Virus record (IMG/VR): IMGVR_UViG_2660238153_000004
Span: 1 to 31,424 of that record
Source of the DNA: a virus
Taxonomy: Duplodnaviria > Heunggongvirae > Uroviricota > Caudoviricetes
Reading direction: 5' to 3' (one strand)
DNA: 31,424 nt
Part shown: piece after piece, positions 2,811 to 21,383 of the stretch
How the letters are laid out: the number at the start of each line of letters is the position of its first letter
How positions within the stretch are numbered: the stretch's first letter is position 1
The notes under the pieces: model-generated
What the model saw: only the letters and a program-made list of their open reading frames with translations
The model's database searches: none
Told to the model about the DNA's origin: nothing
Made by a program: the position numbers and the translations under genes

Positions 2811-3971
2811 TTACCTCGCATTTAAGTAAACCACGTTCTCCTCTTGTGCCGTATTTGTGCCATTGCGACTTATAATCGCATCGATTTTGCTTGCGTGCTC
2901 GGTGAGATGCCCGGCTGAAAGGTGGGCGTATCTTTGAACCATTTCGAGAGTTTCCCATCCTCCCATCTCTTTAAGTGCAAGAAGAGAGACACCGGACTGA
3001 ACCAGCCAGCTTGCCCAGGTATGCCTCAGATCATGGAAGCGGAAGTTGCTAATGCCTGCCCGCTTTAACGCTCCCTTCCATGCCTTGTTGCTGTCGGTTC
3101 TCATCTTCCTTACCGCTGCTGTTTTTGTTCCGTCGCTTCGGTAGGCAGGTTTGGTGTGGACAAATACCCATCTCTTATGGAGCCCCTGCTGTTTTCTTAA
3201 TATCTGGCATGCGGTTTCGTTAAGAGGAACTCCGATCGCATTGCCAGCTTTTGTTTCATCAGGGTGCATCCATGCCATTTTCTTATCCAGATCGACCTGT
3301 GACCACTCAAGGTCTGTAACGTTGGAACGGCGAAGGCCTGTCGTGATTGCAAACATGACCACAGGGAAGAAGTGAGGAGCAATTTCTGCAAACAGGCGCT
3401 TCGATTCCTCCTCTGTAAGCCATCTGATGCGTCCATTCTTAACGCGTGGTGTTGATATTTTGGGTGCCCTGTCAAGCCATCCCCATTCAACAGCCATATT
3501 GAGAATGGCGCGAAGTATTGCCAGATGCCTCGTCTTCGTTCCTTTGCTTGCAAGCTTTGGTTTATACTCCGGCACCGGATTGCCAAGTCGCAAACACCTG
3601 TCCCGGCTCATCTCCCAGTTCAGGCGATGGCGGCGGTTTTCCATCCCGTCTACCGCCTCCATTATTTTTTCTGTTGTTATGTCAGAGAGAATGGCTTCTC
3701 TGAAGTGCAACATCCAGAACGATATAATGCTCTTGTCATCATCAATGGACTTCTTATCCGATTTCTCACGCAGCCACCGTATGCAGGCTTCCTTGAATAG
3801 CTTTTTCGGTGATTCCCCGAGATTTTTTACTCTCCACGCTTCTGCTTTCAGACGATCGTGAAGTTCTTGCGCTTGCCTTTTGTCCGATGTTTCAAGAGAG
3901 CGTCTAACTCTTGATCCATCTGGCGCGACGAAATCGCAGTGCCACGTGCCACCGCGTAGTTTGATTGACAT
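2811..3971 (-). CDS. int: Phage integrase, tyrosine recombinase (P22 Int-like)
   Basis: 386-aa ORF with C-terminal catalytic region ...FRFHDLRHTWASWLVQSGVSLLALKEMGGWETLEMVQRYAHL... (R..HxxR..Y signature); lies directly beside a tRNA gene. Confidence 0.9.
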   Translation of the reverse strand: MSIKLRGGTWHCDFVAPDGSRVRRSLETSDKRQAQELHDRLKAEAWRVKNLGESPKKLFKEACIRWLREKSDKKSIDDDKSIISFWMLHFREAILSDITTEKIMEAVDGMENRRHRLNWEMSRDRCLRLGNPVPEYKPKLASKGTKTRHLAILRAILNMAVEWGWLDRAPKISTPRVKNGRIRWLTEEESKRLFAEIAPHFFPVVMFAITTGLRRSNVTDLEWSQVDLDKKMAWMHPDETKAGNAIGVPLNETACQILRKQQGLHKRWVFVHTKPAYRSDGTKTAAVRKMRTDSNKAWKGALKRAGISNFRFHDLRHTWASWLVQSGVSLLALKEMGGWETLEMVQRYAHLSAGHLTEHASKIDAIISRNGTNTAQEENVVYLNAR

Positions 3972-4666: not shown

Positions 4667-4824
4667 TGGTGTTCTTTCAGTTCTTCAATTCGAATATTGG
4701 TTACGTCTGCATGTGCTATCTGCGCCCACAGCATCCAGTGGTCATAGCAGTCGCTGATGTTCTCGGCTTCGATAACTCTGTTGAATGGTTCTCCATTCCA
4801 TTCACCTGTAACTCGGAAGTGCAT
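4657..4824 (-). CDS. Small hypothetical protein (55 aa)
   Basis: Hand-translated ORF (MHFRVTGEWNGEPFNRVIEAENISDCYDHWMLWAQIAHADVTNIRIEELKEHQAA), below the track length cut-off; GGAG 7 nt upstream of ATG. Confidence 0.4.
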   Translation of the reverse strand: MHFRVTGEWNGEPFNRVIEAENISDCYDHWMLWAQIAHADVTNIRIEELKEHQAA

Positions 4825-4912
4825 TTATCATCTCCATAAAACAAAACCCTCCGTAGCGAGTTCAGATAAAAGAAATCCCCGCGAATGCGAGGATTGTTAT
4901 GTAATATTTGGT

Positions 4913-5194
4913 TTAATCATCTATATGTTTTGTACAGAGAGGGCAAGTATCGTTTCCACCGTACTCATGATAATAATTTTGCACGGTATCAGTCATTTCT
5001 CGCACATTGCAGAATGGGGATTTGTCTTCATTAGACTTATAAACCTTCATGGAATATTTGTATGCCGACTCTATATCTATACCTTCATCTACATAAACAC
5101 CTTCGTGATGTCTGCATGGAGACAAGACACCGGATCTGCACAACATTGATAACGCCCAATCTTTTTGCTCAGACTCTAACTCATTGATACTCAT
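4913..5194 (-). CDS. Cysteine-rich hypothetical protein (93 aa) in AT-rich moron
   Basis: ORF with AAGGAG RBS; sequence visibly AT-rich relative to flanks; several Cys including a terminal CPLC pair (possible zinc ribbon). Confidence 0.6.
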   Translation of the reverse strand: MSINELESEQKDWALSMLCRSGVLSPCRHHEGVYVDEGIDIESAYKYSMKVYKSNEDKSPFCNVREMTDTVQNYYHEYGGNDTCPLCTKHIDD

Positions 5195-5396
5195 TTATAA
5201 ACTCCTTGCAATGTATGTCGTTTCAGCTAAACGGTATCAGCAATGTTTATGTAAAGAAACAGTAAGATAATACTCAACCCGATGTTTGAGTACGGTCATC
5301 ATCTGACACTACAGACTCTGGCATCGCTGTGAAGACGACGCGAAATTCAGCATTTTCACAAGCGTTATCTTTTACAAACCCGTATTCCTGCTCATC

Positions 5397-6293
5397 TCAC
5401 TCTCCTTTGATGCGAATGCCAGCAAGCCAGTTTCTTATGCCGATATATTCAGCGTTCCTGAAACCGCCATTTACATATATAAATGGCAAGCGAAGATTGT
5501 GACCATTGGCTGCCAGGTAGTCTTTACAACCCTGTTCGGTGAAACAGCAGGTAACGAATTCATCAATATCTTTCACAGCAACGCGCCGCCATTTTTCTGG
5601 TGGCTCTCGAAAGTTTTCGTGAAGTAGTTCGAGACGACGACTTTGGCGTTTATTGGCTTCATTGCCATCTTCATCAACCCAGACAATCCGGTCATAGTCA
5701 TAATCAGCATCAACAACGATTTCGCGCTTTTGATACACACAAAACATAGGGTCTGACGTTATTCGATTATCCTGTGTTCGAATATTTTCACCGATGATGC
5801 CAAACGAATCTGGTGCAGATTTTGTCTGCAACTCTTCGATACGTTCAGCCATCGCAGCACACTCTTCAAAGTTGCTTAATGCTTTTCGCTCCCATTCGGC
5901 GCATTGTTTTCCAAGCTCTGCAATCAGCTTGTCTTTGCCTTCCAGCTCAACACGCAGCTTCCCTACCGTTAACGCAATCTCCTCGTTCTCCTGGTCACGG
6001 CGTTTGATGTATTGCTGGTTTCTTTCCAGCTCATCCAGCAGCGCCAAGACGGTAGCTGGATTGGCTGCGGCGATGAATTCAGCATTGGCCTGCTGTTCTA
6101 TTTGGAAATCTTCATCGAAACCGCTTTCAGGATGCGCTCCTTCAATTCTGCAAATGGGAAGATATCCAACAACGTCACGATGAATTAGCGCATCATCACC
6201 ATCAAATTGGCCCTCTCCATATTCGAGCGACCACTCACCACACGTTGCTTTTTCTGCCGCCTCACGCAGTGCCTGATAGTCAATCTTGCTCAC
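5397..6293 (-). CDS. Hypothetical prophage protein with central coiled-coil (resembles Ead/Ea22-type accessory proteins)
   Basis: 298-aa ORF; central heptad-like, charge-rich segment; ATGA start/stop overlap with the upstream gene. Family assignment is from memory of the N-terminal pattern and is tentative. Confidence 0.6.
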   Translation of the reverse strand: MSKIDYQALREAAEKATCGEWSLEYGEGQFDGDDALIHRDVVGYLPICRIEGAHPESGFDEDFQIEQQANAEFIAAANPATVLALLDELERNQQYIKRRDQENEEIALTVGKLRVELEGKDKLIAELGKQCAEWERKALSNFEECAAMAERIEELQTKSAPDSFGIIGENIRTQDNRITSDPMFCVYQKREIVVDADYDYDRIVWVDEDGNEANKRQSRRLELLHENFREPPEKWRRVAVKDIDEFVTCCFTEQGCKDYLAANGHNLRLPFIYVNGGFRNAEYIGIRNWLAGIRIKGE

Positions 6294-9604: not shown

Positions 9605-9943
9605 CTATGACCATTTTTTATTTGGATTTCGTTGGTGAGCGTGATTAACAACTCTGTGCATTACATCCTCATATTTTTCATCTTCAATTTTTTCGACATC
9701 GCGAGGAAATGGTGTTGCTAATGCTTTGTCAACTTTGTCCATTGGGTCTTCATTAATCTTATATTCAGGGCCATCATCTATAGCATTAAATCCAGGTGTT
9801 ACACCGTTTTTTAATGCATATGCTATCCTTTTTTCCCATCTCGCTATTCTCCTCCTGTCTCGAGATGTAAGACCTCTATCAGATACTTTTCTGTTTTGTC
9901 CGCGGTCAGGATTAACATAAATAGTCTTTTTCACCATAAGCAT
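9605..9943 (-). CDS. Hypothetical protein downstream of N (112 aa)
   Basis: ORF; first ATG (MLMVKK...) lies 5 nt after the N stop; the track start at 9949 is TTG. Basic N-terminal half, acidic C-terminal half. Confidence 0.5.
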   Translation of the reverse strand: MLMVKKTIYVNPDRGQNRKVSDRGLTSRDRRRIARWEKRIAYALKNGVTPGFNAIDDGPEYKINEDPMDKVDKALATPFPRDVEKIEDEKYEDVMHRVVNHAHQRNPNKKWS

Positions 9944-9945
9944 AC

Positions 9946-10251
9946 TCAATAAGCACCGTACGGTAGTTTACTGTACAATTTTATTTTTTGGACTGCATGT
10001 ATTTTGTTTCCTAATGGGTTTGAATCTTTGTAATAAATACTTCTATTTTTTCGAACGACTTCTTCTTTCTTCTTGCAGCAAAGGCATCCTAGCGATGCTG
10101 CTTTGTCTGCTCTGACGCAACCAGAGAGCTTTAGCGCAATTTTTCGCGCCAGTGCTTCATTACTGCGTCGCTCGGCAATAAGTTCTGCTCTGCGAGCTTT
10201 GTAGCGGCTTTTTGCCGTACCTTTGGATTCTTTCCAGACAATGGTTACCAT
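9946..10251 (-). CDS. N: N-type transcription antiterminator (phage 21 type)
   Basis: Start at MVTIVWKESKG with AAGGAG 6 nt upstream; arginine-rich motif GTAKSRYKARRAELIAERR matches the phage 21 N boxB-binding peptide as I recall it; lies between nutL/pL and the early-left genes. Confidence 0.75.
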   Translation of the reverse strand: MVTIVWKESKGTAKSRYKARRAELIAERRSNEALARKIALKLSGCVRADKAASLGCLCCKKKEEVVRKNRSIYYKDSNPLGNKIHAVQKIKLYSKLPYGAY

Positions 10252-10361
10252 GATGGTCTCCTTTAAGTGGCTTTGGCGCATGACGCGTCGAGGTGCTTAT
10301 CTTCTCGATCGCTGTCTTGCAGCTGCAATTCGCGCCATCCCCAAAACCACTCAAGTTCTGG

Positions 10362-10565: not shown

Positions 10566-11216
10566 TTAAGGAAGGTTTGCTAGCTTGGCATCAACGACAA
10601 CGCCAATGATTTTACAGTTCCCATTGATTTCAATCATTGGGTATTGTGGATTGAGTGGTTTCAGGAATTTTCTACCGGCATCAATAACTAACTTTTTGAA
10701 TGTCGCCTCGTTTTCTCCTTCAAGTTTGGCGACTACCAACTTTCCATTACGTGGTTCGACTTCTGGGTCGACGAGAATAATCATCCCCTCAGGAATACTC
10801 AGTCCTGCCGGGGCAGTCATTGAATCGCCTTTAACGTCGAGCCAAAAAGAGTCTTCAGAACAATCTACCGTTGTGTCGTACCAGTTATCTATTGCACGCC
10901 TATGATATGGCTCTACAGCTTCCATCCAACATCCTGCGCTTACCCAACTAATTAGAGGATACGAACCTCTTGGATCATGCCTGCTGTGATAGGCAATGTT
11001 TGAAAGACTATCCTCTCCTTTCAACAGGTAATCAGGGGAGCACTGCAAAGCCTTGGCTAAGGCCAATAGGTTTTCGCCATTGGGCTCAGTTTCAGATCGC
11101 TCCCATTGGGAAATAGCAACATTAGACACGCCAACCATCTTGCCAAGGGCAGCCTGCCTAATCTTGAGTTCTTTTCTGCGAGCGCGAATACGCTCACCCA
11201 TCAGTTGTGTATTCAT
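10566..11216 (-). CDS. cI: CI-type prophage repressor (HTH + LexA-like S24 peptidase domain)
   Basis: 216 aa; N-terminal HTH (QAALGKMVGVSNVAISQWERSE); C-terminal GDSM...K Ser/Lys dyad and Ala-Gly in the linker; no Shine-Dalgarno before the ATG (leaderless-type start); operator abuts the start codon. Confidence 0.85.
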   Translation of the reverse strand: MNTQLMGERIRARRKELKIRQAALGKMVGVSNVAISQWERSETEPNGENLLALAKALQCSPDYLLKGEDSLSNIAYHSRHDPRGSYPLISWVSAGCWMEAVEPYHRRAIDNWYDTTVDCSEDSFWLDVKGDSMTAPAGLSIPEGMIILVDPEVEPRNGKLVVAKLEGENEATFKKLVIDAGRKFLKPLNPQYPMIEINGNCKIIGVVVDAKLANLP

Positions 11217-16893: not shown

Positions 16894-17078
16894 ACGCCAC
16901 AATTCAAACGATACCAGAGCTTCTTATCCAGACACGAGGAAATCAGACCGAAGTGGCGAGGATGCTTTCCTGCGCAAGAGGAACAGTGCTCAAGTACAAC
17001 CGAGACAGCAAAGGCGAGCGTCACGTAATAGTTAACGGCGTCCTGATGGTCAAACAGGGCAAGAGGGGAAGACGATGA
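16890..17078 (+). CDS. ninH: NinH-like small DNA-binding protein
   Basis: 62 aa; ...GNQTEVARMLSCARGTVLKY... HTH resembling lambda NinH (from memory); ATGA overlap with rusA. Confidence 0.65.
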   Translation: MNATIQTIPELLIQTRGNQTEVARMLSCARGTVLKYNRDSKGERHVIVNGVLMVKQGKRGRR

Positions 17079-17593
17079 GCATAAGAGAACTAAACCTCAC
17101 CAAAGAACAGCACGATTGGCTGAATGGCTGGCTTGAACTGTGGGGTGCATGGGTTTACTCAGGTCGCCTGGAAAAGCGCATGAGCAGCGTAATAGCGAAG
17201 TTCATGGAGAGCGTAGAGCCGGGAAGAGTTATGACAAGGCCAATGTGTAATGATGATGATGGAATGTTGATTTCTCAGGTCGTCGATTCCGTCATGTACA
17301 TTGACAAGAAAGCCTTTGGCATCCTCCTCAGCTACTACGCTCATGGTTCATCTAAGCGAGCAATTGCATCCTACTATCACGCGACTGCAAAGCCACGCAA
17401 GATGTGTGGGCGTGGTGGTGAGGGATGGAGAAAACCTTCACTGGCAACCTGTAGAAATGAAATTGACGACATCCTGAAAGCGTCGTTATTTGTTTTGTAC
17501 CAACCAATGCAAAATGCTTTCAAAATGCGTAAACGTGTTGAGAAAGTTAAGCATGTTGCCGTTAAAAGCCTTGACATGCAATTAGCCATTTAG
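17075..17593 (+). CDS. Q: Late-gene antiterminator Q (phage 82-type family)
   Basis: 172 aa; WLELWGAWVYSG...RPMCNDDDGMLIS... parallels phage 82 Q (LERWGAWAANN...RPQCCDDDAMII) from memory; last nin-region gene before the late promoter region. Confidence 0.7.
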   Translation: MSIRELNLTKEQHDWLNGWLELWGAWVYSGRLEKRMSSVIAKFMESVEPGRVMTRPMCNDDDGMLISQVVDSVMYIDKKAFGILLSYYAHGSSKRAIASYYHATAKPRKMCGRGGEGWRKPSLATCRNEIDDILKASLFVLYQPMQNAFKMRKRVEKVKHVAVKSLDMQLAI

Positions 17594-17656: not shown

Positions 17657-17731
17657 GGGTCAGTCGTATAAAGGTCATTACGGAAGGCTGTTAACCTTCT
17701 TATCGTGGTTCGAGTCCACGCTGTCCCGCCA
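17657..17731 (+). tRNA. Phage tRNA-Asn (anticodon GUU) candidate
   Basis: 75 nt; acceptor GGGTCAG/CTGTCCC (one T-T mismatch), anticodon stem GAAGG/CCTTC with loop CTGTTAA, T-arm CGTGG-TTCGAGT-CCACG, 3' GCCA; D-stem imperfect. Confidence 0.5.
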
Positions 17732-17736
17732 AACAT

Positions 17737-17812
17737 GCTGGTTTAGCTCCAATGGTAGAGCAGTCGCCTTGTAAGCGAATGGGTAGCGGTTCAAGTCCGT
17801 TAACCAGCACCA
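17737..17812 (+). tRNA. Phage tRNA-Thr (anticodon UGU) candidate
   Basis: 76 nt; perfect 7-bp acceptor GCTGGTT/AACCAGC, D-arm GCTC-CAATGGTA-GAGC, anticodon loop CTTGTAA, T-arm AGCGG-TTCAAGT-CCGTT, 3' ACCA. Confidence 0.65.
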
Positions 17813-18378: not shown

Positions 18379-18838
18379 TCAACGTAAGGCGTTCCTCGAT
18401 ATGCTGGCGTGGTCAGAGGGAACTGATAACGGACGTCAAAAAACCAGAAATCATGGTTATGACGTCATTGTTGGCGGAGAGCTATTCACTGATTACTCTG
18501 ATCACCCTCGCAAACTTGTCACGCTAAATCCGAAACTCAAATCAACAGCCGCCGGACGCTACCAGCTTCTTTCCCGTTGGTGGGATGCCTACCGTAAGCA
18601 GCTTGGCCTGAAAGACTTCTCTCCGAAAAGCCAGGACGCTGTGGCACTGCAACAGATTAAAGAGCGTGGCGCTTTACCGATGATTGATCGCGGTGATATT
18701 CGTCAGGCTATCGACCGTTGCAGCAATATCTGGGCTTCACTGCCTGGCGCTGGTTATGGTCAGTTCGAGCATAAGGCTGACAGCCTGATTGCAAAATTCA
18801 AAGAGGCAGGCGGAACGGTCAGAGAGATTGAGGTATGA
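18362..18838 (+). CDS. R: Endolysin, lambda R-type lytic transglycosylase
   Basis: 158 aa [39 protein letters not shown]...; overlaps the S end. Confidence 0.9.
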
Positions 18839-19272
18839 GCAAAGTAACCGCGATTATCTCCGCTCTGGTTATCTGCATCATCGTTTGCCTGTCATGGGCT
18901 GTTAATCACTACCGTGATAACGCCATCGCCTACAAAGAGCAGCGCGATAAGGCCGCATCCACAATTGCTGACATGCAGAAGCGTCAACGTGATGTAGCAG
19001 AACTCGATGCCAGATATACAAAGGAGCTTGCTGATGCTAACGCGACTATCGAAAGTCTCCGTGCTGATGTTTCTGCTGGGCGTAAGCGCCTGCAAGTCGC
19101 CGCCACCTGTGCAAAGTCAACGACCGGAGCCAGCAGCATGGGCGATGGAGAAAGCCCAAGACTTACAGCAGATGCTGAACTCAATTATTACCGTCTACGA
19201 AGCGGAATCGACAGGATAACCGCGCAGGTTAACTACCTGCAGGAGTACATCAGGACGCAATGCCTTCGATGA
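18835..19272 (+). CDS. Rz: Rz i-spanin
   Basis: 145 aa with N-terminal transmembrane segment ([18 protein letters not shown]) and coiled-coil periplasmic domain; ATGA overlap with R. Confidence 0.85.
19034..19219 (+). CDS. Rz1: Rz1 o-spanin lipoprotein (embedded in Rz, +1 frame)
   Basis: 61 aa from the ATG preceded by AAGGAG; signal peptide with lipobox-like VSAC and Pro-rich mature part ([16 protein letters not shown]); lies wholly within Rz. Confidence 0.7.
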
Positions 19273-19446
19273 TAGCGATAATTTTACTCATCATCCTTCA
19301 CATCTGGCTCTGTAGACAGGGTGATGATCACTTCTGGAGTGAATCCAGATTAAACATCTCATTGCTGATGCTTGATATTGAGCATCTGGCGCGCGGTAAG
19401 GGGCTGCGTTGAGATAAGAGCCAGTCATTACAAATACCAGGATTTA

Positions 19447-19470
19447 GCCTCGCATTTGCGGGGCTTTTTT
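19447..19470 (+). terminator. Putative intrinsic terminator downstream of the lysis cassette
   Basis: GCCTCG-CATTTG-CGGGGC hairpin (one G-U pair) followed by TTTTTT. Confidence 0.45.
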
Positions 19471-19616
19471 ACATCTGCAGTAAACCGCGCATCGCAGCGC
19501 GTAACAATCCCGAGTCTTTCAGAAAGCTGAGCCTGAGAATTGCCGTATATGGTGGCGACCATCTCGGGGGCGGCTTTTCTGTGCGAACAGGCTCATCTTT
19601 CTAAAAGGTAAACGCT

Positions 19617-20102
19617 ATGAATAACTTTGTTGAAATTACCTCAAGAATTGGTCGCATGTACCAAGATTTTCTTATAAGTGGAAAGGGGTCTGGCGACATC
19701 ATAGAGGAAATTGACAAGCTAAGTGCAGAGCTGAGAAGGAATGGGTGTGTTAATTCTATCTTTTTTGAAACTTTGCTAAAGCAAGGCTTTATGTTTGACA
19801 TGATTAATTACAACAAAGTCGCACCCAGTGCTTCGCAAAAATCATATGTGTACGTTCTGCATGCTGAAGATAGTGGGCTAACAAAAATAGGGTTTAGTCG
19901 CAGGGTTAATAAACGAATTTCAGAGATATCTCGCATGAGTGGTGGGAAGCTAAATCTAATTGCAAAGATTCCGGCCGATAGAGAGCTTGAAACCAAATTG
20001 CACCAAAAATATTACAACTATAGGTCGCACGGGGAGTGGTTTAGCCTCAATCGTTGTCATTTGAAAGAGCTAAAAGAAATGCCTGGTAACGAACTGAAAT
20101 AA
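19617..20102 (+). CDS. T5orf172/GIY-YIG-like domain protein (moron; candidate nuclease)
   Basis: 161-aa ORF in a visibly AT-rich segment; C-terminal half SYVYVLHAEDSGLTKIGFSRRVNKRISEISRMSGG...RELETKLHQKYYNYRSHGEWFSLN fits the YVY...KIG...R...E..LH...EWF pattern of the T5orf172 domain; AAGG RBS. Confidence 0.65.
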   Translation: MNNFVEITSRIGRMYQDFLISGKGSGDIIEEIDKLSAELRRNGCVNSIFFETLLKQGFMFDMINYNKVAPSASQKSYVYVLHAEDSGLTKIGFSRRVNKRISEISRMSGGKLNLIAKIPADRELETKLHQKYYNYRSHGEWFSLNRCHLKELKEMPGNELK

Positions 20103-20350
20103 TCCCCGGACTCACTAATTAACGGCAGTACAGCGAAACAACCCAAGCCAGTAAGTGGGGAAATAACACTGGCAGCCACTGAAAGATGAACCTCCTGCCT
20201 TATGGCAAAAAAAGATTCTTTGTGGTGGCGGACTGATGGAAAGACATCGGTTATTGCAGAGACCATTCAATGAGTGGTCTCGACAATGGCTTATACCCTA
20301 CACGGGATAACTTAACTGATATCCCTTTTAACGGATAAACGGAGCCAACA

Positions 20351-20593
20351 ATGGCAGAGATTACCCCCATGACTGAAGAACAGAAATTCCAGTTAGAGAT
20401 TTATAAACTGGTCATGAACCAGAACGCAGCCGCAGAGGAAGCATTTCAGTTCATTGGCACTGACGAACTGAAGCTTGAGCTATTCAAAATTCACTTCCAG
20501 TCAGGCGGCGCTAATTCAGATATCACGACCCGCACTATCGAAGCGGTGCGTAAATCGAAGGAAGCGTTAGACCTGTTCACTGCTGGAGAATAA
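20351..20593 (+). CDS. Hypothetical protein (80 aa)
   Basis: ORF with GGAG RBS; first of three tightly packed genes ahead of the small terminase. Confidence 0.55.
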   Translation: MAEITPMTEEQKFQLEIYKLVMNQNAAAEEAFQFIGTDELKLELFKIHFQSGGANSDITTRTIEAVRKSKEALDLFTAGE

Positions 20594-20595
20594 CC

Positions 20596-20883
20596 ATGGA
20601 ACAACAAGAATTACCTCGCTGGCAGTGTCACAAGCAGGTATGGGCGTTAAAGATTCGACATATCGACCACAAACCAAACCCAGACCTTTCTGGCGTGTCG
20701 GGCGCATCAAGCTATGGGGCCACCATTCACCCGGAAGATGGCACATACGCGCCATTCGATGTAAGCCCTGAGTACGTTAACAAACATCAACCGGTCGCTG
20801 GCGGGTATTACGTTGTGTATGAGGATGGCTATGCATCCTTCTCTCCTGCTGACTCGTTTGAATCCGGGTACACGAAAATCTGA
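20596..20883 (+). CDS. Hypothetical protein (95 aa)
   Basis: ORF starting 3 nt after the previous stop; Tyr/Gly-rich C-terminal half. Confidence 0.55.
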   Translation: MEQQELPRWQCHKQVWALKIRHIDHKPNPDLSGVSGASSYGATIHPEDGTYAPFDVSPEYVNKHQPVAGGYYVVYEDGYASFSPADSFESGYTKI

Positions 20884-20894
20884 CGGAGCCTCTG

Positions 20895-21383
20895 ATGACT
20901 ACAGTCGCATGGGATGGAAAGACACTGGCATCTGACACCCAGGCATCAACTGGCAGTGTCGTTTGCTCCCTTTCTGAACAGAAGATATACACCCCGCCAG
21001 AGTCAGGTTGGGAGATTTACGGAAGCAAAGTCCTTGCCTTCGGTTGCTCTGGTGACTGCGGCGCAGAGATGGAATTACAGGATCTGCTTAAGCACAACCT
21101 CACGTATGCCTCCGAGTTCCTGCCGACATTCTCCTTCACGGCTCTGGCTATCATCGGTGCTGGGCGAGCATACATCATCACCAAAGAGAAAGGCGAAACG
21201 CGGGCGAGCATATCGCTACAGGTTGAGCCATACGCAATAGGCAGTGGCGACCTGATCGCGCGCACTGCCATGCACTGTGGCAAAAATGCGAGAGAAGCGG
21301 TACAAGTCGCAATTGATCTTGACTGCTATTCCGGCGGCAGCGTTGATTCGTTCCCCGCTGGGAAGCAAACAGAAGGGAAATAA
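20895..21383 (+). CDS. HslV-like N-terminal-threonine hydrolase (proteasome beta-type fold), phage-encoded
   Basis: 162 aa beginning MTTVAWDGKTLASDTQASTGSVV; parallels to HslV (MTTIVSV...DGQATLGNTV; ...AIGSGGPYA...ALDIAGDI versus ...AIGSGDLIA...AIDLDCYS) from memory; GGAG RBS. Confidence 0.6.
   Translation: MTTVAWDGKTLASDTQASTGSVVCSLSEQKIYTPPESGWEIYGSKVLAFGCSGDCGAEMELQDLLKHNLTYASEFLPTFSFTALAIIGAGRAYIITKEKGETRASISLQVEPYAIGSGDLIARTAMHCGKNAREAVQVAIDLDCYSGGSVDSFPAGKQTEGK

Follow-up and report, generated by a model that had tools for sequence, protein, structure and literature searches.

The IMG/VR virus record IMGVR_UViG_2660238153_000004, a stretch of 31,424 nucleotides from a member of the Caudoviricetes that we refer to as the window, carries a small AT-rich gene between its Rz/Rz1 lysis genes and its packaging genes, and the locus raises a simple question: what does a lone nuclease gene do at this place in a prophage? 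An original prediction, made from the sequence, had described the gene as a moron preceded by a terminator-like hairpin of its own and had offered anti-phage defence, superinfection exclusion or a homing-type function as candidate roles. We find that the gene (19617..20102, + strand; 161 residues, ATG start) encodes a GIY-YIG nuclease of the T5orf172/MUG113 type, and that it is very probably a free-standing, two-domain nuclease gene in an exchangeable one-gene slot in the late operon of lambdoid phages. As to its role, we tentatively prefer, with somewhat less than even confidence, a late-expressed, homing-like selfish nuclease, whose expression timing, activity, target and drive we infer from the evidence set out below.

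The encoded protein is a T5orf172/MUG113-type nuclease

The expectation of a T5orf172/GIY-YIG domain in the C-terminal half of the protein was borne out. The core spans residues 77-154 (19845..20078, + strand), where the Pfam model MUG113 (PF13455) matches residues 90-154 with E=4.2e-13 and 50.1 bits (cut-off 22.3) and T5orf172 (PF10544) matches residues 77-154 with E=1.1e-9 and 39.2 bits (cut-off 20). Both families lie within the GIY-YIG superfamily and both scores are above the gathering cut-offs; the canonical GIY-YIG model, PF01541, gave no match to the window protein at E<=0.1. An AlphaFold model built on a 51-sequence alignment (mean predicted local distance difference test score 91) consists of three helices, a beta-beta-alpha-beta-alpha core and a C-terminal helix, and thus has the three-stranded sheet with flanking helices of the GIY-YIG alpha/beta fold. 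UPF0213, Eco29kI, UvrC and T4 EndoII are lower-ranked fold matches, and a profile search of the PDB with the family returned a UPF0213 GIY-YIG chain as its sole match, at a borderline E=0.001. An exhaustive HMMER search recovered 5717 cluster representatives for the C-terminal domain, with the two-domain architecture in only about a dozen.

Residues Y79, K90-I91-G92, R100, E125, L128, H129 and E140-W141-F142 are invariant across the two-domain family, and Y79, K90, R100, E125, E140 and W141 are still invariant in the 51-sequence set. By motif order, spacing and a published alignment (PMC8263062), Y79, R100 and E140 would be the equivalents of Y6, R27 and E75 in I-TevI, and E140 that of E180 in Odn; the corresponding Glu is required by the T5orf172 nuclease Odn (E180A is inactive; PMC8263062) and by SNIPE (E414A; PMC13190303). 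The C-terminal region as a whole (residues 69-161) is basic, with an isoelectric point (pI) of 9.7. Judged by hidden Markov model matches, predicted fold and motifs, the protein is a member of the T5orf172/MUG113 subfamily of GIY-YIG proteins.

Both domains are under strong purifying selection. The ratio of nonsynonymous to synonymous divergence (dN/dS) is ~0.14 in each domain against a 62% homologue, a comparison in which dS is saturated, and the nonsynonymous and synonymous diversities within the window-type allele (piN/piS) are 0.0009/0.021, a ratio of about 0.04. These values bear on the idea that the gene is a decaying relic or a chance open reading frame (ORF) without current function, an idea for which one can cite the many truncated and frameshifted copies in databases and the absence of the gene from most phages, to which it is therefore dispensable. 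With the full-length ORF intact in at least 29 viral contigs and in the 56 of 5426 complete E. coli genomes that carry the window-type allele, an invariant active site and a confidently predicted fold, we consider this idea extremely improbable; the selection analysis effectively refutes it.

The gene stands out from its surroundings in composition, as had been predicted from its AT-richness. The G+C content (GC) of the ORF is 0.389, and 0.395 at third codon positions, compared with 0.46-0.53 in neighbouring genes and 0.480 over the window as a whole; a GC this low is reached in just 1.9% of 486-bp windows (z = -2.3), and the GC trough at 19572-20122 matches the extent of the ORF. The gene itself is already catalogued. 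Its product is 100% identical to Salmonella phage epsilon34 gp68, to g341c gp64 and to a protein of NM-3, and the window and epsilon34 genes are one synonymous nucleotide apart, so that this is the same gene as epsilon34 gp68, automatically annotated and not new: RefSeq labels the epsilon34, g341c, NM-3 and E. coli (WP_001058931.1) copies 'GIY-YIG nuclease family protein', and the window protein matches PHROG 4284 (function unknown) over its full length. A literature search turned up no experimental work on the window nuclease or its identical copies, and neither 'gene 68' nor 'gp68' was matched in the paper on the epsilon34 genome (PMC2629481). The earlier statement that this is not a characterised system hence stands where experiment is concerned, but not for the databases, which hold it under the names just given.

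A predicted acidic bundle at the N terminus

The nuclease core is preceded by an N-terminal domain of 68 residues (19617..19820, + strand), which the AlphaFold model predicts to be an acidic three-helix bundle (helices 3-21, 25-41 and 47-68). The original prediction had not recognised the first 65 residues or so, and our searches agree: the domain matches no family in Pfam, NCBIfam or the PDB, and its fold matches are generic helical bundles only. It has a pI of 5.2, a single Cys and no Zn-binding motif, and among 18 family members most have an acidic domain here too (pI 4.5-6.8). Because it is acidic, the domain is more likely to serve in dimerisation, partner binding or autoinhibition than in DNA recognition. 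The activation of SLX1 depends on a helical partner domain, SLX4, and SLX4-like activation is a possible analogy for the N-terminal domain.

Three relationships of this domain were considered and rejected. The first is that it forms an independent family (phrog_875): the matches to the N-terminal domain alone in a search of 5.8 billion proteins were all truncated, frameshifted or internally deleted two-domain genes, and tblastn of the domain in phages found only the same two-domain gene. The second is a similarity of residues 17-56 to designer PPR proteins, which amounts to ~5 bits per repeat with an E-value summed over eight copies of the same weak match; Pfam reported no PPR in the window protein. 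The third is a hidden module common to the domain and to the Rha or KilA-N/ORF11CD3 proteins whose genes alternate with the nuclease gene. BLASTP and hhalign comparisons of the window protein with these alternates were negative (probabilities 0.1% and 4%), and the window protein has no Bro-network Pfam domain (Bro-N, KilA-N, pRha or ORF11CD3), shared position and neighbourhood being the only link.

The gene occupies an exchangeable slot

When the window is aligned with the Rha-carrying phages Sf101 and BTP1, homology stops at 19621, that is, after the ATG plus two bases, and restarts at 20100, at the stop codon, so the exchanged unit (~19613-20099) is the ORF itself. The nuclease gene substitutes from start to stop for another ORF (Rha, KilA-N, gene 66 and others), with no DNA added. 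In Sf101 and BTP1 the slot holds Rha (Phage_pRha plus ORF11CD3); in HK620, Emek and Dewey it holds KilA-N (plus ORF11CD3 where scanned, in Dewey), and in Sf6 gene 66. The Dewey slot additionally contains an HNH_3+AP2 gene, a combination described as the 'IPA-HNH' homing architecture (PMC10448857), and that of Huey a Tad2-like gene (Thoeris anti-defence 2-like, PF11195, E=2e-24; 1695-2192 of the Huey locus L004) plus a gene of the gp49/gene-66 family, from which it follows that the late-operon slot can also carry counter-defence cargo. The gene had been expected to vary in presence among P22/Sf6-like phages, and it does, mostly in alternation with Rha.

The left edge of the slot is an intrinsic terminator (19446..19471, + strand) made of a stem-loop at 19446-19465 (8 pairs, 6 of them G-C) and a T-run. 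The terminator-like hairpin of the original prediction is therefore real, but it is not the gene's own: it lies upstream and is common to every allele of the slot, Rha, GIY-YIG and HK106-type alike, and the same element is annotated as a (rho-independent) terminator in the epsilon34 and HK106 records. It is followed by a conserved structured leader of ~150 nt (19472..19616, + strand), which is kept whichever cassette comes next, Rha or GIY-YIG. The leader folds with a minimum free energy of -66.7 kcal/mol (z = -3.0) into a long hairpin at ~19515-19608, whose 3' bases are predicted to pair with the Shine-Dalgarno sequence of the nuclease gene (AAAGG, 19604-19608); the inner stem of this hairpin is followed by a U-rich tract, and the two could form a second terminator. 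Compensatory changes occur at 6 of the 43 predicted leader pairs among 7 sequences, and an Rfam scan of the leader found no family. The leader may serve the slot as an element that controls translation or transcription.

To the right, a conserved spacer (20103..20350, + strand) that is common to Rha-carrying phages separates the cassette from a DUF2560 gene (20351..20593, + strand), the right-hand conserved neighbour of the slot, downstream of which the carrier backbones diverge. A second variable point lies within the spacer at ~20309-20337, where BTP1 (and P6, by annotation) has the lysogen-expressed gene pid on the opposite strand. The possibility that the spacer is what is left of a pid gene, and might thereby provide a promoter active in the lysogen, was rejected, as the spacer has no pid homology (tblastn E>5) and the BTP1 pid is a separate insertion at ~20309-20337. 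A terminator-like hairpin is present on the minus strand of the spacer at 20212-20191. Another candidate for the cassette junction, the Sf6 'bsq7 boundary sequence', is located inside Rz and is not relevant.

The same arrangement is widespread in host genomes. Of the 5426 complete E. coli genomes, 505 contain the 182-nt terminator plus leader. We sampled 60 of these at even spacing, and the slot was occupied by Rha in about 35, by GIY-YIG in 16, by KilA-N in 1 and by a 'hypothetical protein' in 2, while 6 had no annotated feature there. The leaders fall into two lineages (>=96% and ~86% identity), each found with both cassette types. The HK106 allele, at 31% amino acid identity, lies between the same flanks, and alleles of ~60% identity in other lambdoid phages have a homologous terminator and leader that are diverged as much as the ORF. 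In a siphovirus, a relative of 35% identity belongs to a different accessory island (Arc / Bro-N / pRha / T5orf172 / superinfection-immunity gene), flanked by the genes for the tail chaperone and the tape measure. We conclude with high confidence that recombination within the conserved terminator plus leader and the spacer that frame the slot swaps the ORF, mostly Rha against GIY-YIG.

An exchange of this kind invites the explanation that the nuclease is a late accessory factor which is not selfish but serves the lytic cycle of its phage, and whose function the Rha and KilA-N ('Bro network') genes can take over; as a DNA-binding or DNA-processing protein it might modulate late gene expression, nick host DNA as T4 EndoII does, or attack satellites of the phage-inducible chromosomal island (PICI) type, which hijack the late genes, as Odn does against PLE. 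We regard this explanation as possible, though on balance unlikely. It is favoured by the swapping with pRha+ORF11CD3 and KilA-N+ORF11CD3 genes at identical start and stop positions behind the same leader, by the persistence of both cassettes behind two diverged leader lineages, which suggests that each is useful, by the strong purifying selection in both domains and by the Tad2-like anti-defence gene in the Huey slot. Moreover, T5orf172 has historically been linked to Bro-N and KilA-N proteins (PMC8096241), one relative lies directly beside Bro-N and pRha genes, and two T5orf172 proteins have been turned to new uses, Odn as an anti-satellite nuclease (PMC8263062) and CapR as a repressor (PMC8096241). 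Against it, the window protein resembles neither Rha nor KilA-N nor ORF11CD3 in sequence or profile, and it has no domain for specific DNA binding of the kind that RepA_N provides in Odn. Its catalytic residues are invariant, which speaks against a domesticated role in DNA binding alone, and a nuclease without specificity would put the phage's DNA, which is unmodified, at risk.

A young cassette on old flanks

Five records, from 3 distinct phage isolates, carry the window-type allele among 362 phage records with matching flanks. In IMG/VR there are 29 carriers with an allele of 99-100% identity, at an identical position in all 29, and 4 with an allele at about 60%. Identity to the window among the 29 carriers is 99.4-99.9% in the ORF, 98.0-98.6% in the immediate flanks and 96.6% in the DUF2560 gene, and the segment just downstream of the latter (the 95-residue ORF and peptidase segment) is common to only 2-3 of the 29 other carriers, which indicates that the backbones are diverse and that this segment is another variable block. 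The carrier backbones also differ in Q, terminase, portal and other genes.

For comparison we used Rha from the best 80 of 336 IMG/VR stretches encoding it. Nucleotide diversity is 0.005 in the GIY-YIG ORF and 0.043 in the Rha ORF, whereas the diversity of the flanks is alike in GIY-YIG and Rha carriers (0.018/0.019, 0.036/0.037, 0.020/0.028 and 0.047/0.055, respectively). With Rz as the comparator, synonymous diversity is 0.021 in the GIY-YIG cassette, 0.095 in Rz of the same genomes, 0.084 in Rz of Rha carriers and 0.149 in Rha, so that the cassette lies 4-7 times below Rz or Rha; since this holds at synonymous sites, the low diversity of the cassette reflects youth and not only constraint. 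The carriers nevertheless show 10-20 flank haplotypes. Single-nucleotide polymorphisms of the flanks are tied to cassette type only at 19613-19616, the linkage not reaching beyond 4 nt from the ORF; at other sites the frequencies in the two cassette types differ by at most 0.21 upstream and 0.34 downstream, and no carrier-specific 'immunity' polymorphisms occur in the flanks beyond 19613-19616.

A young cassette has thus been placed on many old flank haplotypes, with breakpoints at the ends of the ORF, and its spread has been recent and independent of the backbone. This is the observation that keeps a homing-type function, one of the roles first suggested, a reasonable candidate. It also bears on the interchangeable late factor discussed above, as a cassette much younger than Rha fits an invader better than an equivalent resident. 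The arrangement is the one described earlier for nuclease genes at 'boundaries of genetic exchange' (PMC10448857).

Frameshifted, truncated and nuclease-domain-deleted copies of the gene are common (P0176, P0204-P0209), and they are found in degraded prophages, where any gene decays. Among HK106-type alleles we observed a decay series, in E. coli GCA_002283465.1 (3001-3213 of locus L015) and 21 other contigs, in which a recurrent deletion drops the nuclease domain and joins the N-terminal domain in frame to the downstream spacer (P0209); the L015 copy is in a degraded prophage adjoining fimbrial genes.

Expression in the prophage and the possibility of defence

The window begins with proB (amino-acid kinase plus PUA) and proA (aldehyde dehydrogenase family), followed by a tRNA-Thr(CGT) gene (2721-2796) and an integrase gene (2811-3971, - strand), and this order identifies it as a P22/Sf6-like prophage integrated at proA/tRNA-Thr. 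Its CI-type repressor gene (10569-11216, - strand) is intact. Judged by gene order, the nuclease gene is inside the late operon that depends on the Q antiterminator (gene at 17075-17593), and from this location in an integrated prophage it is predicted to be silent in the lysogen. A scan of 19100-20500 for sigma-70-like promoters found 0 sites where 2.5 are expected by chance, the scan being simple consensus matching that a weak or non-sigma-70 promoter could escape, and no + strand terminator was detected downstream of the nuclease stop codon. The description of the gene as a moron with its own transcription signals is consequently not supported, and for all its deviant composition the gene replaces an ORF instead of adding DNA.

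These features weaken the proposal that the protein is a prophage defence or superinfection-exclusion nuclease, made in the lysogen or very early after a trigger, that cuts incoming phage DNA like the single-gene GIY-YIG defences PD-T4-3 and SNIPE, its acidic N-terminal domain acting as a sensor or as an autoinhibitor released by a phage protein. Such a nuclease would be at odds with a Q-dependent late operon under an intact repressor, and with a gene that has no promoter-like site and directly upstream of which lie a terminator, a second hairpin with its U-tract and a structure that would occlude the Shine-Dalgarno sequence. In a PADLOC scan there was no significant system match (the best was PDC-S57, E=4e-4 and 18 bits, for the nuclease domain only), the protein has neither a transmembrane (TM) segment nor DUF4041, and we found no co-varying modification or immunity partner, the neighbours on both sides being common to non-carriers. 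We therefore consider the defence role, which had been put forward at the outset, to be unlikely.

How a homing-like nuclease would work, and what speaks against it

If the gene is instead a late-expressed, homing-like nuclease, it would be silent in the lysogen, and after induction or infection Q-antiterminated RNA polymerase would read through the upstream terminator, while the leader hairpin that covers the ribosome-binding site may limit translation. Cleavage of DNA would follow the one-metal GIY-YIG mechanism, in which, by analogy with I-TevI, Odn E180A and SNIPE E414A, the scissile phosphate would be positioned and stabilised by Y79 and R100, with E140 binding Mg2+. The nuclease would be directed at the genomes of co-resident related phages or prophages that bear the alternative cassette, and the break would be repaired from the nuclease-carrying genome with leader and spacer as homology arms, so that the cassette is copied into the rival; the outcome would be intronless homing or marker exclusion. 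The N-terminal domain would mediate dimerisation, partner binding or autoinhibition. This reading draws its support from the invariant active site, the sporadic, cassette-like distribution, the recent spread, the decayed copies, the terminase neighbours and the late position, and traits of homing are further supported by the HNH+AP2 homing-type gene in the Dewey slot and by the relatives of ~60% and 31% identity at the same place in other lambdoid phages.

A number of points weigh against it. No DNA-binding domain attached to the nuclease domain was recognised in the window protein, and without a recognisable DNA-binding module or Zn finger site-specific targeting goes unexplained. Where the nuclease gene is missing, the site is not empty but holds another functional gene, Rha. 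The presence of both cassettes behind two diverged leader lineages could reflect a long-term balanced polymorphism rather than drive. The breakpoints are tight and there is no extended co-conversion tract, so ordinary lambdoid mosaic recombination together with selection fits equally well; the low diversity of the cassette shows its youth and not the cause of it; and the degenerate copies could be explained by prophage decay alone. Finally, a weak or non-sigma-70 promoter could have escaped the simple consensus scan.

A variation on the homing-like nuclease deserves mention, namely that the two-domain family is a distinct kind of late-expressed nuclease for 'allele-drive' or inter-phage competition in temperate lambdoid phages, targeted through a protein partner of the N-terminal domain or through dimerisation and not by a DNA-binding domain of its own, which rivals Rha for the leader-framed slot; a variant would be an anti-satellite (anti-PICI) or trigger-activated exclusion nuclease. 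We consider such a distinct system doubtful.

Genes around the slot and other accessory genes of the prophage

Between the Q and holin genes lie two phage tRNA genes, Asn-GTT (17657-17731, + strand) and Thr-TGT (17737-17812, + strand). The lysis block itself comprises holin, lysozyme and Rz/Rz1 (18835-19272), and its last gene before the slot is a small conserved ORF of 50 residues (19260..19412, + strand), a homologue of epsilon34 gene 67 and Sf6 gene 65, which is present with or without the nuclease gene. Downstream of the DUF2560 gene follow an ORF of 95 residues (20596-20883, + strand), whose match to phrog_11049 is confined to the first half of that family (positions 1-94 of 182), and a gene for an HslV/proteasome-like peptidase (20895-21383, + strand; phrog_1040, E=7e-35), and then the genes for an Sf6-type small terminase, the large terminase, a P22 portal and a P22 coat protein.

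Elsewhere in the prophage, a gene for a Nun-like transcription termination factor (phrog_5632, E=5e-71) adjoins that for an N-like antiterminator (9608-9949 and 9949-10281, both - strand), and this pair lies in the most AT-rich stretch of the window, where GC falls to 0.36. Phage lambda is excluded by the Nun protein of HK022, and by analogy the Nun-like gene may be a genuine prophage exclusion function. Near the integrase end of the prophage, a trough at 4727-5500 contains an AT-rich ORF (GC ~0.38) of 130 residues (4757-5149, + strand) with no PHROG or PADLOC match, a candidate orphan accessory gene.

Comparison with known systems

The closest counterparts of the gene are epsilon34 gp68 and g341c gp64, which lie in the same place, with Rz/Rz1, gene 67 and the terminator upstream of them and the DUF2560 gene downstream. 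HK106 gp64 and the ~60% alleles share with it the two-domain architecture, the slot after Rz, terminator and homologous leader, and the invariant residues; they differ in sequence (31% amino acid identity for HK106 gp64, 58-62% for the others) and come from siphoviruses and from phages whose lysis and terminase genes are not the same.

The T5orf172 homing genes of ICP1 and T5-like phages (PMC10448857) resemble the window gene in their C-terminal T5orf172 domain, their free-standing state and their variability among close relatives, as well as in their frequent decay and their position beside terminase or structural genes and at boundaries of exchange; a terminase gene is within 35% of the neighbourhoods of T5orf172 homing genes (PMC10448857). 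Their proteins are larger, however, and in 87% of the surveyed genes have N-terminal Zn-finger DNA-binding domains (CapR-like, DUF723, DUF4397), where the window protein has a 68-residue acidic bundle, and they belong to lytic phages, whereas the window gene is in a temperate late operon and replaces a gene, with no empty site. In terms of sequence features, then, the window gene has the distribution of a free-standing homing gene but not its DNA-binding domain. I-TevI and the T4 Seg proteins differ in another way, as their catalytic domain is N-terminal and tethered to C-terminal DNA-binding modules, while that of the window protein is C-terminal and its partner domain is acidic.

ICP1 Odn (Gp88) and the CapR of PLE (PMC8263062, PMC8096241) demonstrate that T5orf172 works as a nuclease and that its genes are exchanged and redeployed in the conflicts of mobile elements, and the neighbours of odn include Rha-like and Bro-N genes (PMC8263062, PMC8096241). 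Odn is targeted by a RepA_N DNA-binding domain and CapR retains the Zn-finger part only; the window protein has neither. It likewise lacks the TM segment and the DUF4041 of SNIPE / PD-lambda-1 (PMC13190303), and its similarity to PD-T4-3 (PDB 9u75) is at the level of the fold only; SNIPE and PD-T4-3 act in uninfected cells, whereas the window gene is embedded in a repressed late operon. By these comparisons of sequence and domain content, the window gene belongs neither to a known defence system nor to the Bro network.

It is best described as an ordinary T5orf172/GIY-YIG gene at a well-known mosaic junction of P22-like phages, and should not be presented as a new defence system. Its value is that of a compact and genetically tractable case, in temperate phages of E. 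coli and Salmonella, for asking whether T5orf172 nucleases drive the exchange of cassettes, which has so far been studied mainly in lytic Vibrio phages. What makes this case useful is that the slot holds one gene between defined homology arms, that Rha and GIY-YIG are its two main alleles and that recent spread has left a clear signature in the population, and its acidic, selected N-terminal module departs from the usual homing endonuclease design of a nuclease plus a DNA-binding domain.

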